This document shows positions 31,469 to 38,400 of a DNA stretch of 64,000 nucleotides, piece by piece. The translations under genes were made by a program, and so were the position numbers. Within the stretch, counting starts at the first letter, position 1; each line of letters begins with the position of its first letter. Origin of the DNA: Escherichia phage CJY920; the sequence record PQ349265.1; one strand, given 5' to 3'. The notes below the pieces were generated by a model. The model was not told the origin of the DNA. It saw nothing but the letters and a program-made list of their open reading frames with translations, and did not search any database.

Positions 31469-32104
31469 ATGTCTAAAGTAACTTACATCATCAAAGCTTC
31501 TAACGATGTTCTGAATGAAAAAACTGCTGCGATTTTAATTACCATTGCTAAGAAAGATTTCATTACAGCTGCAGAAGTTCGTGAGGTGCATCCAGATTTA
31601 GGTAATGCAGTAGTTAATAGTAATATTGGGGTATTGATTAAAAAAGGCCTAGTGGAGAAATCCGGTGATGGATTAATCATTACAGGTGAAGCTCAGGATA
31701 TTATTTCAAATGCGGCAACTTTATACGCACAGGAAAACGCTCCTGAACTGCTGAAAAAACGAGCAACTCGTAAAGCTCGCGAAATTACTTCTGATATGGA
31801 AGAAGATAAAGACTTCATGTTAAAACTTTTAGATGAAAATGGATTTGTTCTTAAAAAGGTTGAAACTTATCGTAGTAACTATCTCGCTATTTTAGAAAAA
31901 CGCACTCACGGAATTCGCAATTTTGAAATTAACAACAATGGAAATATGCGAATTTTTGGATACAAAATGATGGAACATCATATTCAGAAATTTACTGATA
32001 TCGGAATGTCATGTAAAATCGCTAAAAACGGTAATGTGTATCTTGACATTAAACGCTCAGCAGAAAACATTGAAGCTGTAATTACTATAGCATCTGAACT
32101 GTGA
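31469..32104 (+). CDS. motA: MotA middle-transcription activator, 211 aa
   Basis: Translation matches T4 MotA from memory; length 211 aa. Confidence 0.9.
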   Translation: MSKVTYIIKASNDVLNEKTAAILITIAKKDFITAAEVREVHPDLGNAVVNSNIGVLIKKGLVEKSGDGLIITGEAQDIISNAATLYAQENAPELLKKRATRKAREITSDMEEDKDFMLKLLDENGFVLKKVETYRSNYLAILEKRTHGIRNFEINNNGNMRIFGYKMMEHHIQKFTDIGMSCKIAKNGNVYLDIKRSAENIEAVITIASEL

Positions 32105-32113
32105 GGAATAATA

Positions 32114-32443
32114 ATGAACAAGTTAGAAATTGTTAATGAACTTCGTCGTTGTGCAGAACCTACTCAAGAGGGATGGGACATCTGGTACCATGGGGCTTAT
32201 CTTGGAACTATCGTAAAGATTAAGACCGGTAAATACATGATTATTCGTGAAAGTAAAGATGCTCCAGTAGGTATTCGCAATAATTTTATGGCAGCGATAA
32301 GTTCATTTACGGATGCAGCTTACGAAATTTACCTTGCTGATTATAAAGAATTCCAGGAATCTCAACCAGTTATTCGCTCAATTGGTGTTAACAAAGCTCA
32401 ACAGAAAACTTTGTGGCAGCGTATTAAAGGATGGTTTAAATGA
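32114..32443 (+). CDS. hypothetical protein
   Basis: 109-aa ORF. Confidence 0.45.
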
Positions 32444-32901
32444 ATCCATTTATTAATCGTTTAAAAATGCTGAATGTTCCTTTATCTCGTGAAACTCCAG
32501 AAAGTCTTGTTCAAAAATTTAAAGCACATGGTTATAAATGCACAGAAGAAGATATTCTTGCAGAAGTTCCGGAAATTTGTTGGCAAACCGCATACTGGGA
32601 TGAAAACCAAAAGTACCAACGACGGATTGTTTGCGCAGCCAACCGTTTTAAATTAAAAGATGGACGAACTCTTGTTATTCCAGGTGCTCGTCATTATTCT
32701 AAAGATATGGCAGCAGTTTTAGATGTAGTTAAACCCCAATTAGTTACTCAGCAAGTTTGTGATGATGACCAAGGGTTTATTGACCAATATAGTAATTATT
32801 GGACACGTGAAGAAGCAATGATTATTGCAACTTACGCTGGACAAGTACGTATTGAACGCGGTGGTAGTGAAAAAGAACTTTACTCTGAGGACCTTTACTA
32901 A
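32440..32901 (+). CDS. hypothetical protein
   Basis: 153-aa ORF. Confidence 0.45.
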
Positions 32902-33197
32902 TGAATATTAAAAAGTTTCAAATTGATGGAATTATGAATCAAATCCAGGCATTGGAATATGCCAATAAAATGATGTCAACCAATTGGGGAATTTATACCA
33001 ATGAACCGGCATTTCAGTTCTGTAATATGGAATTCACTAAAAAGCTCGTAGGAAAAGATTATGTATGTCCATTTAGTTCCCCAATAAATGGAATGCTAAA
33101 GCCTGCTTTACGCGATCTTTATATTGCGATGAACGAAGAAATGATAAAAGAACTAAAACGTCAACTGAAGGTGATTCAATTTGGCCAGGGAAATTAA
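32901..33197 (+). CDS. hypothetical protein
   Basis: 98-aa ORF. Confidence 0.45.
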   Translation: MNIKKFQIDGIMNQIQALEYANKMMSTNWGIYTNEPAFQFCNMEFTKKLVGKDYVCPFSSPINGMLKPALRDLYIAMNEEMIKELKRQLKVIQFGQGN

Positions 33198-33399
33198 TTC
33201 AAAATCCGATTATTTTAATTCTCTCAATGATAAAAATAAAAATCTAATACGGCACTTTATCGTTGAGATGGGATATACTGATACACGTGATTTAAGAGAA
33301 CATATATTTGAATGTGGTGTAGCTAAAAAGTTTTCATTCACATGCAAATGTTTAAGAGAGGTAATTCAGCACTATGAACAATTTAGTCGCAAAACATAA
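33181..33399 (+). CDS. hypothetical protein
   Basis: 72-aa ORF. Confidence 0.4.
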   Translation: MAREINSKSDYFNSLNDKNKNLIRHFIVEMGYTDTRDLREHIFECGVAKKFSFTCKCLREVIQHYEQFSRKT

Positions 33400-33482
33400 T
33401 TTTAATAAAGCTTCTGTTCATAAAGATAAGAAGAAAGCGTTTAAAGAATCTAATCGCAAACAGAAACATAAGGGGAAGGTCT

Positions 33483-33761
33483 ATGATTATTGATTCTCAA
33501 TCTGTGGTTCAATACACAATCAAAATTGATATTCTAGAAAAGCTATATAAGTTTCTACCAAATTTATACCACTCAATTGTTAATGAATTAGTTGAAGAAC
33601 TACATCTCGAGAATAATGATTTCTTGGTTGGAACTTATAAAGACCTCTCAAAAGCAGGATATTTTTACGTAATTCCAGCTCCAGGAAAAAGTATTGATGA
33701 TGTATTAAAAACTATAATGATTTACGTCCATGATTACGAAATTGAAGATTATTTCGAATGA
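33483..33761 (+). CDS. arn: Arn anti-restriction protein, 92 aa
   Basis: Length/position (upstream of asiA) as T4 Arn; acidic protein. Confidence 0.6.
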   Translation: MIIDSQSVVQYTIKIDILEKLYKFLPNLYHSIVNELVEELHLENNDFLVGTYKDLSKAGYFYVIPAPGKSIDDVLKTIMIYVHDYEIEDYFE

Positions 33762-33910
33762 GTCATAATCTTGAAAAGGTAATCGAGCATAATGTAGCTC
33801 AGGAACGCGAGTCGTTCAAGGAATTCGTAGAAAAAATTTTTGAAGAAAATAACACAGACCAGTTTACAAATCAAGTGTCTGATGATATTATAATAAAGTC
33901 AACTAATTGA
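33758..33910 (+). CDS. hypothetical small protein, 50 aa
   Basis: ATG overlapping arn stop. Confidence 0.3.
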   Translation: MSHNLEKVIEHNVAQERESFKEFVEKIFEENNTDQFTNQVSDDIIIKSTN

Positions 33911-33922
33911 GTGGTATAGTTA

Positions 33923-34195
33923 ATGAATAAAAACATTGATACAGTTCGTGAAATTATTACTGTTGCGTCTATTTTGATTAAATTTTCCAGAGAAGATATT
34001 GTTGAAAATCGTGCTAATTTTATTGCATTTCTGAATGAGATTGGAGTAACGCATGAAGGTAGAAAGTTAAATCAGAATTCATTCCGTAAAATTGTTTCTG
34101 AATTAACCCAAGAAGATAAGAAAACCCTCATCGACGAATTCAACGAGGGTTTTGAGGGTGTATATCGATATCTAGAGATGTATACAAACAAATAA
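33923..34195 (+). CDS. asiA: AsiA anti-sigma70 factor, 90 aa
   Basis: Translation MNKNIDTVREIITVASILIKF... matches T4 AsiA from memory. Confidence 0.9.
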   Translation: MNKNIDTVREIITVASILIKFSREDIVENRANFIAFLNEIGVTHEGRKLNQNSFRKIVSELTQEDKKTLIDEFNEGFEGVYRYLEMYTNK

Positions 34196-34852
34196 TTATT
34201 TAGCCCTTCCTAATATTCTGGCCGCCTGAGAACATATTGATTCAAGGCGGTCATTACTTATATGATCATTTCTATACCAGTACATGGTTATTGTTCCAGC
34301 ATAGATATTATCCAAATTGAAATATGGACAACTGTACATGTAATTTATTTCGGGAGTAGGCTTTTTAGTTGGTAAAAAAGCAAATTTTGAGTCGGAATAA
34401 TAATGACGTCCATTTAAATGAACTGTATATTCATCCATAGTTTTATCAACAGGATATCCTCCAAGTGATTTTTCGCTTATTGTTGAAGGTAATTTTCCTT
34501 CATATGCTATAATATCAACAAAATAGTTTAAGTTTTTAGGGCGGAAAGAATACACCGCACTAAAGTCTGCCTCAGATGATATATGAACTATCTGGAGTTG
34601 TTCCAGGGCGACAGATTCAAAGCGTGCATTTCTTTCCTTTTCAATAATTTCACTGTATGTTTCATACTTTGATTGCTTATAGTACTCAAAGAAACTATCT
34701 CCCCTATACCAAACAATCGCCATTATAAACAAAAGAATTACGACAGCTACCCGGGAAGCAAGAACTTTCCCGGTAGCGTTATCTTTGAACAAGCGATCTA
34801 GAACACCAAACAGAATATCAGAGGGCGAAAATGATATTCTAGGTGCTGCCAT
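34196..34852 (-). CDS. t: holin T, 218 aa
   Basis: Translation matches T4 holin T from memory; N-terminal TM segment. Confidence 0.93.
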   Translation of the reverse strand: MAAPRISFSPSDILFGVLDRLFKDNATGKVLASRVAVVILLFIMAIVWYRGDSFFEYYKQSKYETYSEIIEKERNARFESVALEQLQIVHISSEADFSAVYSFRPKNLNYFVDIIAYEGKLPSTISEKSLGGYPVDKTMDEYTVHLNGRHYYSDSKFAFLPTKKPTPEINYMYSCPYFNLDNIYAGTITMYWYRNDHISNDRLESICSQAARILGRAK

Positions 34853-34869
34853 AGACCCTCCTTTTAAGA

Positions 34870-34877
34870 TATTTATA
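34870..34877 (-). promoter_or_regulatory. late promoter TATAAATA (holin t)
   Basis: + strand tatttata = TATAAATA on - strand, ~20 nt upstream of t start. Confidence 0.45.
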
Positions 34878-35424
34878 CGTAATGCTTGAATAAACGCTTA
34901 TACCAAGGCTTCTGTTCTTTTTCAGGCCATGAAGGGAATTCACCACCTAAATGCTCATGCTTTTCTAAAAGAGCAAAGAACCGCTTAAGGTTTTTATAAT
35001 AAAATTTTTCCTTTTTATTGGCGACAGAAGCTTCAATCATATTATTTAAAACTTGGAACTCTTTATATAATTCTTCAATTTTTCTATTACGAATTAAAAC
35101 TCGCTTATATGTTTCGTCTTCTTTCCAACCGTCATCAGTCCATATATCAAATTCGCCGGGCTCATCAAAAGTTATACCAACCGGGCTTCCAATGTCACTT
35201 ATAAAAATTTCTTCTTTATTAAAAGTCCATGCCCGTTTGCCGCGATGGTCTTCTTCATAAATCCAATCTTGAGTACGTTCATCAAATACAACCGCGTATC
35301 CTTCTTTAGGTTCTAAAGGTTTTTTAATTGTTGAATGAGCAGGAAGACCGAGGCCTTTAATCGGTTTGTAATTTTCTTCTTTGTAAAATTCTTTAGTGTC
35401 AAAATAATAATGATATATTTTCAT
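34873..35424 (-). CDS. 38: gp38 tail-fibre assembly/adhesin protein, 183 aa
   Basis: Position downstream of gene 37; length as T4 gp38. Confidence 0.7.
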   Translation of the reverse strand: MKIYHYYFDTKEFYKEENYKPIKGLGLPAHSTIKKPLEPKEGYAVVFDERTQDWIYEEDHRGKRAWTFNKEEIFISDIGSPVGITFDEPGEFDIWTDDGWKEDETYKRVLIRNRKIEELYKEFQVLNNMIEASVANKKEKFYYKNLKRFFALLEKHEHLGGEFPSWPEKEQKPWYKRLFKHYV

Positions 35425-35451
35425 ATTTAGAAGGGGCCGAAGCCCCTCTCC

Positions 35452-38400
35452 TTATGCTAAACGAACGATATAGTTAAAAGCAATGTTTTTAACCGTGTTT
35501 TCTGTATTACCTGTACTATTTACAGTGATAGTATGACCGTGCGAACCAATTGCTACCGTGTGGGTATGGGCACCGATACCTACAGTATGGGTATGAGCAC
35601 CTATACCTACAGTATGAGCATGGTTACCGGTGGTGTTAGTTACACCTGTCCAAGTTCTTGATGCGTGGAAATCAACGGGAGCGCCATAAGTGAAGTTGGA
35701 ACCTGTGAAGCCGTGTGAAGCCTGACTACTACCCATCACGAACGCTCCACTCGCGGTGTAGAATGAACTATTATCACTTCTGAACCAACCAAACACACCA
35801 GAGATTTCCATGTTACCTCTATCGTGAGCGTGGTTTCCAGTAGTATTGGTCGCTTTAGTACCATAATCAAATGATGAAGAGGTTTTAGTACCATAATCAA
35901 AACTTGATGTGGTTTTAGTACCCAAATCAGTATTAGATGCAGAAGCACTATGATTATGAGACTTAATACCATCAGCTTCAGCACTCAACACTGCGCGACC
36001 GCTCGGTTTACCTTTGATAGTTTGCCCACGCATATCTGGAATAACACCACTAGGATATGCAACAGCTAACTTAGGATATGCAGACTTATCAAAGGTTTGG
36101 CCTTCCATTAAAGCAAACCCGTCAGGAACTGAATCGCTCGGCCACGGAATTGGAGCACCTACCGGATAAGGTATCTGAGCATCGGAATACATCTTATACA
36201 CTTGTCCAAGTACATGGTCTGCAGGTAATTCTTCTACCGGTGATTGAGATGCACCATTAAGACCGATTACCGAAATATTGCTAGTATTTTCTGTAGCATC
36301 ATATTCAACCAATAAAGATTGGGCAAAAGAGCCCATGTATATGTATACATCATAATCATTACCAGATGTATTCACTGTAGCAATGTTTGACGGGCTGGTA
36401 CTAGTGCTAGACCACAGCGCCGCATTAATAGATTTAGGATTATTGTTACCAGTTCTAAGAACAATTTCACTTATGGATGCTTGTTCAGGAGAATTAGCAT
36501 TATAACCATTCCCGCCGATAATTTTGAAACGCGCGGTAGATGTAGATTGTGGCATTGTTACAGTAGCAAATTTGTACCAGTACCAGCCTACTACTTTATC
36601 AACACCTGACCATGTGCCAACATTAACTTTGCGGTTTAATGTGGTATTCAAGTTAGCAAAGTTTCCTGAACCACCAGTGATATTACCGTCAGTTCCTAGT
36701 TTGGTATTTCCAACTTTAAGAGGCTTAGTAATATCGACAGTATCAGAGTTTAATGCAATGCCATGGGCGTAGGTGTAATTATGCATACGAACAATGTTTC
36801 CACCATCACCAATACCTACATACCATTTTGTAACATCTGCTTTGCGTCCTTGGATGAAGTTAGAAGACTCTTGTGTTGGAGCATTTATTCTAATAGCATC
36901 GGCGGCAGTATTAACTGTTATACGCTGAGATGCTGTAGTACCTGATGTATCTACTTTAAACTTGCCCACGCCAATATCAACAACGTGTTCCATAGAAACT
37001 GCGCCGGTGCCTAACTCAATACTAAACGGGCGAAGTGGACCGATATCGCCATGTTTACCTTCACCGTAAGCAGTTGGAATAATATGAAGACTGCCTTCTG
37101 AACGTCTAAAAATGGCTCCATAATCTGCGTTCCAAATGCGAAGACCATTTACAGCATTTGTCGCGATTTCACCGGCTGCGCTGATTGTACCGTCAAATGT
37201 AGCATTTTTTACTACTGTAAAGTTTTCATTAACAATCTGGGTGCCATTTATAACCGATTCGACTTTACCCGCAGTTGTTCGTTGAATATAGCTCATCCAA
37301 CTAGTTGCGTCAGAAATTTCCATGACATTTTTACGGGTGCCTTCACTAGGATTAGTAAAGGTATTACCCCAAACTTTGATTTCCACATTATCAACTGAAC
37401 TATAACCGCTTGTATTTCCTTTGAACAACAGCGTAGAAGCATTATTACGACCATCAATATTAACCGAACCACCAATAACGTCAATATTGCCTGGAGTAAC
37501 TAACAAACCGCCATGAGTATTAATGTTTGTGGTACCTTTACCACGGAAATAGTGATGATAATTACCGCCTTGATAATATCCTAAAAGAGTCTGACCGTCA
37601 CCATACGCGTTATTATCATGATAAGTGACAACCGTCGCCAAAGCATAGTTTTCCGACGGAGGAGTGGTTAAATCGGTACCGTTTACAGAATAACCCATAA
37701 CCATTTTTCTAAGACTGGTGGTTTCTGCCGGGCCACTCAGGAAAGTTCTTGTGCCGTTGTTTACACTAAAGAAATAACCATCTTGGTGCCATTGTAAGCC
37801 GGTATCATTATCGCCAAGAGCAATTGAAGCTGTTCCTAATTCAGAATATCCTTTAGGGCCGTGTGGAAGACCTACAGAAACAGAATGACCTGCTTTCAAT
37901 CCACCAGACCAAGTAAATGACCAAAGATAGGCGTCTAATCCATCGCCGGCATACCAGGTTATTCCATCATTATCTTTAACTTCATGGAATATACCCGCAC
38001 CTACGGCATTACGCATAACACGAAGATGATTAATAGCGGTTTCGCTTTCTGCCAATGGGGTGTTATTTGCTAATGAATAGATATCATAATCGCCTGTCTT
38101 CTTCCCATTTGTAATAACTTTATCGGTCAGAATTTGTGGAGACGAAATAGATTTCCATGCTGATACTTCAGGTGAAGTAAATAGGCCACTGCCTGAAAAT
38201 GCATAAGTGCTTTCGTTACCAGCGGCGTAGTCTTGAACGCGGATATTAACTACTTGTGTAGTTAATCCATCATTAGCCGGGGCATAAATGATTCCACGTT
38301 CGCGACTATTGCCATCGAAAAAACGAACATGCGCTGTACCTGAACTTTTTGTAATAAGTTCTCCGCCTTCGGTCATAATCTGCCCGGCGGCAATAATATC

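Follow-up and report, generated by a model that had tools for sequence, protein, structure and literature searches.

Strand-specific hairpins within the opposing coding regions at the abutting asiA/t junction of Escherichia phage CJY920 and its T4-like relatives

The convergent genes asiA and t of Escherichia phage CJY920 (PQ349265.1) form an ordinary, annotated tail-to-tail boundary between an early and a late transcription unit, and we propose, with a probability of about 0.7, that the 3' signals of each unit are embedded in the opposing gene. Because the two stop codons abut, the predicted 3'-end signals of either unit lie within the 3' part of the opposing coding sequence, where they would be written in the synonymous positions of its codons. 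One hairpin, favored on the t-sense RNA, lies within asiA; another, favored on the asiA-sense RNA and recurrent among T4-like phages, lies within the end of t. We infer that these hairpins terminate or stabilize transcripts in vivo, and that a part of the early RNA reads through into t. Coordinates are those of the window, i.e., the whole 64,000-nucleotide stretch of DNA that was analyzed.

The asiA/t junction and its genomic context

The window belongs to Tequatrovirus (98.4% identity to Shigella phage SHBML-50-1 over 2.1 kb) and is oriented opposite to the T4 map; in the T4 annotation, the first 50 kb are all on one strand. The early gene asiA (33923..34195, + strand) codes for the 90-aa anti-sigma-70 factor, which is 100% identical to the T4-type AsiA protein and is a full-length member of the Pfam family PF09010 (144.6 bits, E = 1e-42, profile positions 1-85 of 85, against a curated cut-off of 25 bits). 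The late gene t (34196..34852, - strand), assigned from the ORF list, Pfam, and the T4 annotation, codes for the 218-aa holin T, a full-length member of the Phage_holin_T family PF11031 (392.7 bits, E = 6e-118, against a curated cut-off of 22.2 bits). The TAA stop codon of asiA (34193..34195, + strand) is followed directly by TTA, the complement of the TAA stop codon of t (34196..34198, - strand), such that the stop-to-stop junction at 34193..34198 has 0 nt of intergenic sequence. A direct read of 34184..34204 gives ACAAACAAATAA up to the asiA/t boundary and TTATTTAGC beyond it, with ...ACA AAC AAA TAA/TTA TTT AGC CCT... around position 34190.

The T4 reference (NC_000866) has the same 0-nt junction, with t annotated at 160221..160877 and asiA at complement 160878..161150; hence, the abutment reported in an earlier sequence-only reading is confirmed, and the standard annotation already contains it. 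Its gene names, its coordinates, and the absence of a spacer agree with the sequence, the ORF list, Pfam, and the T4 reference, and many relatives show the same layout. The abutment is thus known and ordinary, and that claim, as first written, adds nothing new. Its further claim, that there is no obvious terminator between the genes, holds trivially in that the stop codons touch, but terminator-like hairpins flank the junction inside both opposing coding sequences. The T4 junction has the same genes in the same order with the same 0-nt layout and both junction-proximal hairpins with identical stems at identical positions; it differs from the window by point differences only (e.g., S/A at codon -11 of the holin and one loop base of the asiA-sense hairpin).

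The early unit, on the + strand here, comprises arn, asiA.1, and asiA, and the late unit, on the - strand, comprises 37, 38, and t. A consensus scan recovered a sigma-70-like promoter with an extended -10 element (TTTACA, 17 nt, TG-TATTAT; 33863..33891, + strand) about 30 nt upstream of the asiA start codon, which is a consensus match alone (10/12). This site sits within the preceding small ORF, the asiA.1 homolog. On the - strand, a pattern search for the T4 late-promoter motif matched TATAAATA at 34870..34877, 18 nt ahead of the t start codon; this is a motif match alone, in a window with 10 such matches against 10.2 expected by chance. An Rfam search of 32000..37000 at E<=1 gave no match.

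A predicted terminator of the late t transcript within asiA

The consensus scan of the - strand returned one convincing site, a hairpin at 34153..34121 (AAAACCCTCGTTGAATTCGTCGATGAGGGTTTT followed by CTTATCTTCT), which together with its tail we predict to be the intrinsic terminator of the late t transcript (34111..34153, - strand). The element occupies asiA codons 67-77 (KTLIDEFNEGF), with its start 42-43 nt beyond the t stop codon. Its 14-bp stem (AAAACCCUCGUUGA/UCGAUGAGGGUUUU, with five G-C pairs) closes a 5-nt loop (AUUCG), folds at -18.6 kcal/mol (z -5.5), and ends in GGGUUUU, which is followed by the tail CUUAUCUUCU at 34120..34111 (the scan calls a U-tract at >=5 T in 8). The phage SP1 record MT682709 annotates a - strand terminator at exactly this position.

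The structure is strongly biased to one strand. The same DNA read as + strand RNA folds at only -12.4 kcal/mol (z -1.6), with two G.U pairs turning into A.C mismatches in the asiA mRNA, and the possibility that 34121..34153 is a feature of the asiA mRNA was rejected on these two grounds. When compared with synonymous recodings of asiA, in which dinucleotide and codon-pair bias are not modeled, the t-sense fold shows selection against recoding in all Tequatrovirus variants (z -5.8 to -8.2), as against z of about -2.3 for the asiA-sense fold of the same region. G.U pairs leave both junction-proximal hairpins stable only on the RNA that they serve and weak on the opposing mRNA, and this weakening on the mRNA of the host gene would avoid premature termination or ribosome blocks there.

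The hairpin at 34121..34153 is restricted to Tequatrovirus, with RB69 lacking it (z about 0 to -1). The Dhaka- and Gaprivervirus lineages, in which the two genes overlap by 4 nt, carry, at +6..+43 in asiA, another hairpin that is specific to the t-sense strand (-16 to -18 kcal/mol, z -3.4 to -5.4; z about 0 on the opposite strand). Separately, the last asiA codons of the window (V-Y-R-Y-L-E-M-Y-T), just before the stop codon, form a 9-bp hairpin on the asiA-sense RNA (GUGUAUAUC...GAUGUAUAC, 34158..34185, + strand), and the homologous position in Dhaka- and Gaprivervirus forms a strong t-sense-specific hairpin instead. Which strand these codons have been used to structure apparently differs between lineages.

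We propose that the late polymerase would start at the motif upstream of t (34877..34870), or further upstream, and that late t transcription most likely ends at the strong hairpin 43-85 nt past the t stop codon. The resulting t mRNA would have a 3' UTR of about 80 nt that is antisense to asiA. The sequence-only reading had early and late transcription converging with possible antisense read-through, and in the - direction extensive read-through is opposed by the strong predicted t-sense terminator.

A conserved asiA-sense hairpin within the 3' end of t

On the + strand, a candidate weak intrinsic terminator or 3'-end hairpin occupies 34219..34266. Its stem (UGGCCGCCU/AGGCGGUCA, 34219..34253) leads into the tail UUACUUAUAUGAU. 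The element begins 24 nt past the asiA stop codon and is antisense to the t codons for D-R-L-E-S-I-C-S-Q-A-A-R. The scan gives it a 9-bp G+C-rich stem at -16.1 kcal/mol. Across Tequatrovirus the asiA-sense fold has -16 to -17.5 kcal/mol, with z of about -3.5 to -3.8 relative to synonymous recoding; the corresponding z-scores are -3.2 to -4.9 in Mosigvirus, relative to a recoded holin C-terminus, and -3.5 to -5.9 in the loci L028/L029, L037, L044, and L053 and in the Lazarus type. In Mosigvirus, Lazarus-type, and other lineages the fold reaches -18 to -23 kcal/mol, and the t-sense fold of the same DNA is weaker, often only about -9 kcal/mol. About ten lineages have a hairpin at this codon-aligned position, antisense to R-A-A-Q ... 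L-R.

A single pairing register across all lineages failed, with Tequatro- and Mosigvirus being shifted by 1 nt relative to the rest; hence, covariation was analyzed solely on 12 sequences that share one register. Among these, with structures derived from the tested and mutually related sequences themselves, 86.8% of the cells are paired as against 32-49% in slid-partner controls, the covariation score is 0.301 versus 0.159, and double changes occur in 5/12 pairs, a level reached by 7/500 shuffles. Counted over the stems, G.U cells outnumber A.C cells by 24 to 2, a bias that, as read from the alignment, is a signature of selection on the asiA-sense RNA.

The tail of the element varies between lineages. 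U-runs follow the hairpin in L037 (GCCGCUUUUUUUCU), in the Lazarus type and L044 (UUUUUGG), in L033 (UCUUCUUUUAU), in RB69 (UUCUUCAUUU), and also in L053, and relatives carry UUUUUUUCU, UUUUUGG, or UCUUCUUUU at this position. The tail of the window element (UUACUUAUAU) has 5 U in its first 8 positions with no run; the loop measures 17 nt, and the element was not among the calls of the strict scan. Given this poor U-tail (UCAUUACUUAUAU) and the long loop, a leaky element is expected in T4 and in the window.

Under the proposed organization, the early polymerase would enter from a promoter upstream of asiA (the sigma-70-like match at 33863..33891) or from further upstream, and the early transcript would meet the conserved hairpin 24-58 nt past the asiA stop codon. 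With its poor U-tail, the T4-type version probably terminates or stabilizes only a part of the transcripts. It is unlikely, in our view, that both junction-proximal hairpins chiefly block 3' exonucleases or mark processing end-points, thereby stabilizing the two mRNAs, with transcription stopping further on through Rho or decay. The weak U-tail in T4 would agree with such a role, as would the t signal that persists at about 40% of that of asiA in published data (see below), but the t-sense element has a textbook stem and U-run, and several lineages have U5-U7 directly after the asiA-sense hairpin, a feature that stability alone would not require. The roles in stability and termination are in any case not mutually exclusive.

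A second hairpin in t and published expression data over t and 38

Further inside t, a second asiA-sense terminator-like hairpin spans t codons 24-35 (NATGKVLASRVA; 34745..34790, + strand), with the stem GCUACC.GGGAAG/CUUUCC.GGUAGC at 34745..34778 and the tail UUAUCUUUGAAC. The scan energies are about -17.5 to -19 kcal/mol, and the hairpin recurs across lineages, with z of -3.3 on the asiA-sense and -3.1 on the t-sense RNA relative to synonymous recoding; since it is equally stable on the t-sense RNA, the strand that it serves is uncertain. Its covariation is moderate, with 73.8% of cells paired versus 37-53% in slid controls and 27 double-change cells versus 13.1 +/- 3.0 expected. It uses GGG and CGG codons, and the asiA-sense RNA continues with UUAUCUUUGAA, the antisense of conserved FKDN codons. 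This hairpin could either provide another stop for early read-through or belong to the structure of the t mRNA itself.

The literature searched gave no direct data on the asiA/t junction, whether from 3'-end mapping or Term-seq, as anti-late RNA, or as a described terminator. RNA-seq tables covering t and 38 (34196..35424 in the window) do bear on read-through in the + direction. At 5 min after infection with motA-am, RNA of the late genes t and 38 is increased, a finding that its authors called unexpected and ascribed to 'an unusual expression mechanism' (PMC6024815). The motA-am/wt fold changes in Table S1 of that study are 3.17 for t and 3.11 for 38, alongside 3.20 for asiA, 2.95 for asiA.1, and 3.20 for arn; those of the other genes are 0.58 (37), 0.117 (36), 0.076 (35), and 0.065 (34). 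From the same table, the read density of t relative to asiA is 0.403 in wt and 0.405 in motA-am, that of 38 is 0.093 and 0.092, and that of 34 is 0.337 and 0.007. A second dataset lists the t and 38 transcripts as 'early' and the gp38 protein as 'late' (PMC9697503, Table S2).

The strand of these reads matters for their interpretation. In the first study a stranded library kit was used, but the strandedness option of featureCounts is not stated, and RT-qPCR was done with a general cDNA kit (PMC6024815); in the second, featureCounts was run at default settings (PMC9697503). Strand was probably not used in the counting for either table. Assuming such unstranded counts, the early RNA over t and 38 suggests partial antisense read-through from asiA, and the early-type t/38 signal, which scales with asiA, renders plausible the + direction of the antisense read-through raised by the sequence-only reading. 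The simplest reading of the densities is a read-through of about 40% of the asiA level across t and about 9% across 38. Strand-specific counts would instead make the early t/38 signal a sense RNA that needs another explanation. The drop in density from t to 38 is consistent with the second hairpin: the early RNA that passes the first hairpin would run antisense through t, with most of it stopping before or within 38, and the hairpin at 34745..34778 is a candidate for such a stop.

As a side observation, the t/asiA density computed from the mean reads in Table S1 of PMC6024815 is 0.40 in the wild-type host, about 0.77 in a dksA deletion, about 1.07 in a dksA deletion with motA-am, and 0.55/0.76 in ppGpp0. 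Alongside these shifts the late genes 34-36 do not rise, with 34 and 35 being about unchanged and 36 roughly halved. DksA/ppGpp may influence read-through or RNA stability at the asiA/t junction.

A more speculative version, which we hold to be decidedly doubtful, is that the early read-through is programmed, with the weak first hairpin and the conserved second one setting the length of an antisense RNA over t and part of 38. If true, this RNA would, within minutes of the start of infection, protect against untimely early holin production or contribute to lysis timing, which would be antisense regulation of the excludon-like kind, and the programmed read-through would explain both the rise of t and 38 in motA-am (PMC6024815) and their 'early' class (PMC9697503).

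Junction spacing and the location of hairpins across relatives

To place the junction among relatives, 70 asiA/t loci were retrieved from IMG/VR by means of an alignment of the holin. Four loci with spurious gaps (L064, L083, L085, and L086) were excluded from the gap counts: their holin regions are frameshifted or internally duplicated, and L085, where blocks of t recur, appears to reflect mis-assembly and not biology. The gap is -4 nt in 18 and 0 nt in 17 of the 70 IMG/VR loci, and the other gaps between adjacent genes are -8, +3, +8 (three loci), +11, +12, +17, and +26. Annotated genomes from 12 genera match this picture, with 0 nt in RB69, P545, JD18, Lazarus, and SP1, +1 nt in STP4-a, +8 nt in Ent31, +12 nt in phiR1-RT, +17 nt in LC53, and a 4-nt overlap in Bp7 and P479. 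Among T4-like phages, a tight junction (-4 to +3 nt) is the usual state.

Bigger distances in the IMG/VR loci occur only with an extra ORF inserted, and such loci have a canonical G+C hairpin with a T-run directly after the t stop codon (e.g., AACAAAGGGAACCGTAAGGTTCCCTTTTTTCA). An extra small ORF between t and asiA is seen in L062, L063, L065, L066, L070, L072, L014 (Muldoon), and L015 (avDM2). These relatives are of the Aeromonas- and Serratia-type, with the G+C hairpin and T-run after the t stop codon where sequence is shown; in Muldoon it is annotated. The 17- and 26-nt gaps contain a single palindromic GGGAGACTTCGGTCTCCC hairpin (also given as GGGAGACUUCGGUCUCCC) that could serve both directions. 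In the lineages with intergenic room, a canonical hairpin is placed in the gap or right past the t stop codon, and the in-CDS hairpin is absent. The survey indicates that tail-to-tail tightness is the conserved state and that lineages with space use it for a terminator. Marfavirus and Jiaodavirus have tight junctions yet only weak hairpins.

This distribution bears on whether the in-CDS hairpins could be functionless by-products of conserved amino-acid motifs or codon bias, with timing and the action of Rho on untranslated antisense RNA being sufficient to end the transcripts. We regard this as quite improbable: the motifs R-L...Q-A of holin T and E-F-N-E-G-F of AsiA are indeed conserved and partly self-complementary at the DNA level, but the folding goes far beyond that of synonymous recodings of the same proteins (z down to -8), and Ent31 and LC53, which encode the same amino acids and have an intergenic hairpin, nevertheless lack the in-CDS asiA-sense hairpin. 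The asymmetry between G.U and A.C cells and the compensatory changes are likewise unexpected from coding constraint alone. On the other side of the balance, P545 and JD18 have 0-nt junctions and no strong hairpins, and the + strand RNA downstream of asiA is in places moderately C-rich over G (C/G up to 2.0).

Comparison with known terminators and convergent genes

Like E. coli-type Rho-independent terminators, the t-sense element of the window and the asiA-sense element of several relatives combine a G+C-containing stem-loop with a following U-rich tract, downstream of a stop codon, and agree with the consensus; the T4 asiA-sense element has a degenerate U-tail. Unlike typical intrinsic terminators, both elements lie within the coding sequence of the converging gene and are built from its synonymous and conserved codons.

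Ju and colleagues reportedly described, in 2019, overlapping bidirectional terminators between convergent E. coli genes. At convergent E. coli gene pairs, the two transcripts share a 3'-terminal stretch that contains hairpins (bioRxiv 10.1101/2022.10.23.513370). The asiA/t case resembles these in its convergent genes and in having hairpins where the transcripts would overlap; unlike the E. coli bidirectional terminator, it has no shared hairpin but two elements 65 nt apart, each favored on a single strand. It also differs in that the asiA and t units are separated in time, making collisions unlikely as the main mechanism. In T4, early and late transcription are temporally separated, and it is mainly this separation that would limit head-on conflict between the two units. 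Termination by head-on collision of converging polymerases at an overlapping bidirectional terminator is thus very improbable here: the convergent geometry, the position of the hairpins in the expected overlap, the general collision model for E. coli (bioRxiv 10.1101/2022.10.23.513370), and the single palindromic hairpin in relatives with 17-26 nt gaps would suit it, but T4-type phages carry a distinct hairpin for each strand instead of a common element, and simultaneous dense convergent transcription of an early and a late gene is unlikely.

As to the early signal over t and 38, it would most simply correspond to the T4 'anti-late' RNA. Such RNAs, i.e., early-strand transcripts complementary to late genes, go back to the T4 literature of the 1970s.

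Biological implications

The strand-specific, conserved 3' hairpins embedded in the opposing genes are a small addition of a known kind to the picture of an ordinary early/late boundary. They suggest that these densely packed phages can write terminators into the synonymous positions of an opposing gene and render them strand-specific through G.U pairs. The early-type signal of t and 38 in two RNA-seq datasets is probably antisense read-through that was counted without strand information, and is worth a note for users of those tables. For those who recode or engineer T4-like phage genomes, synonymous substitutions within the final 30 codons of asiA or t may change where transcripts end.
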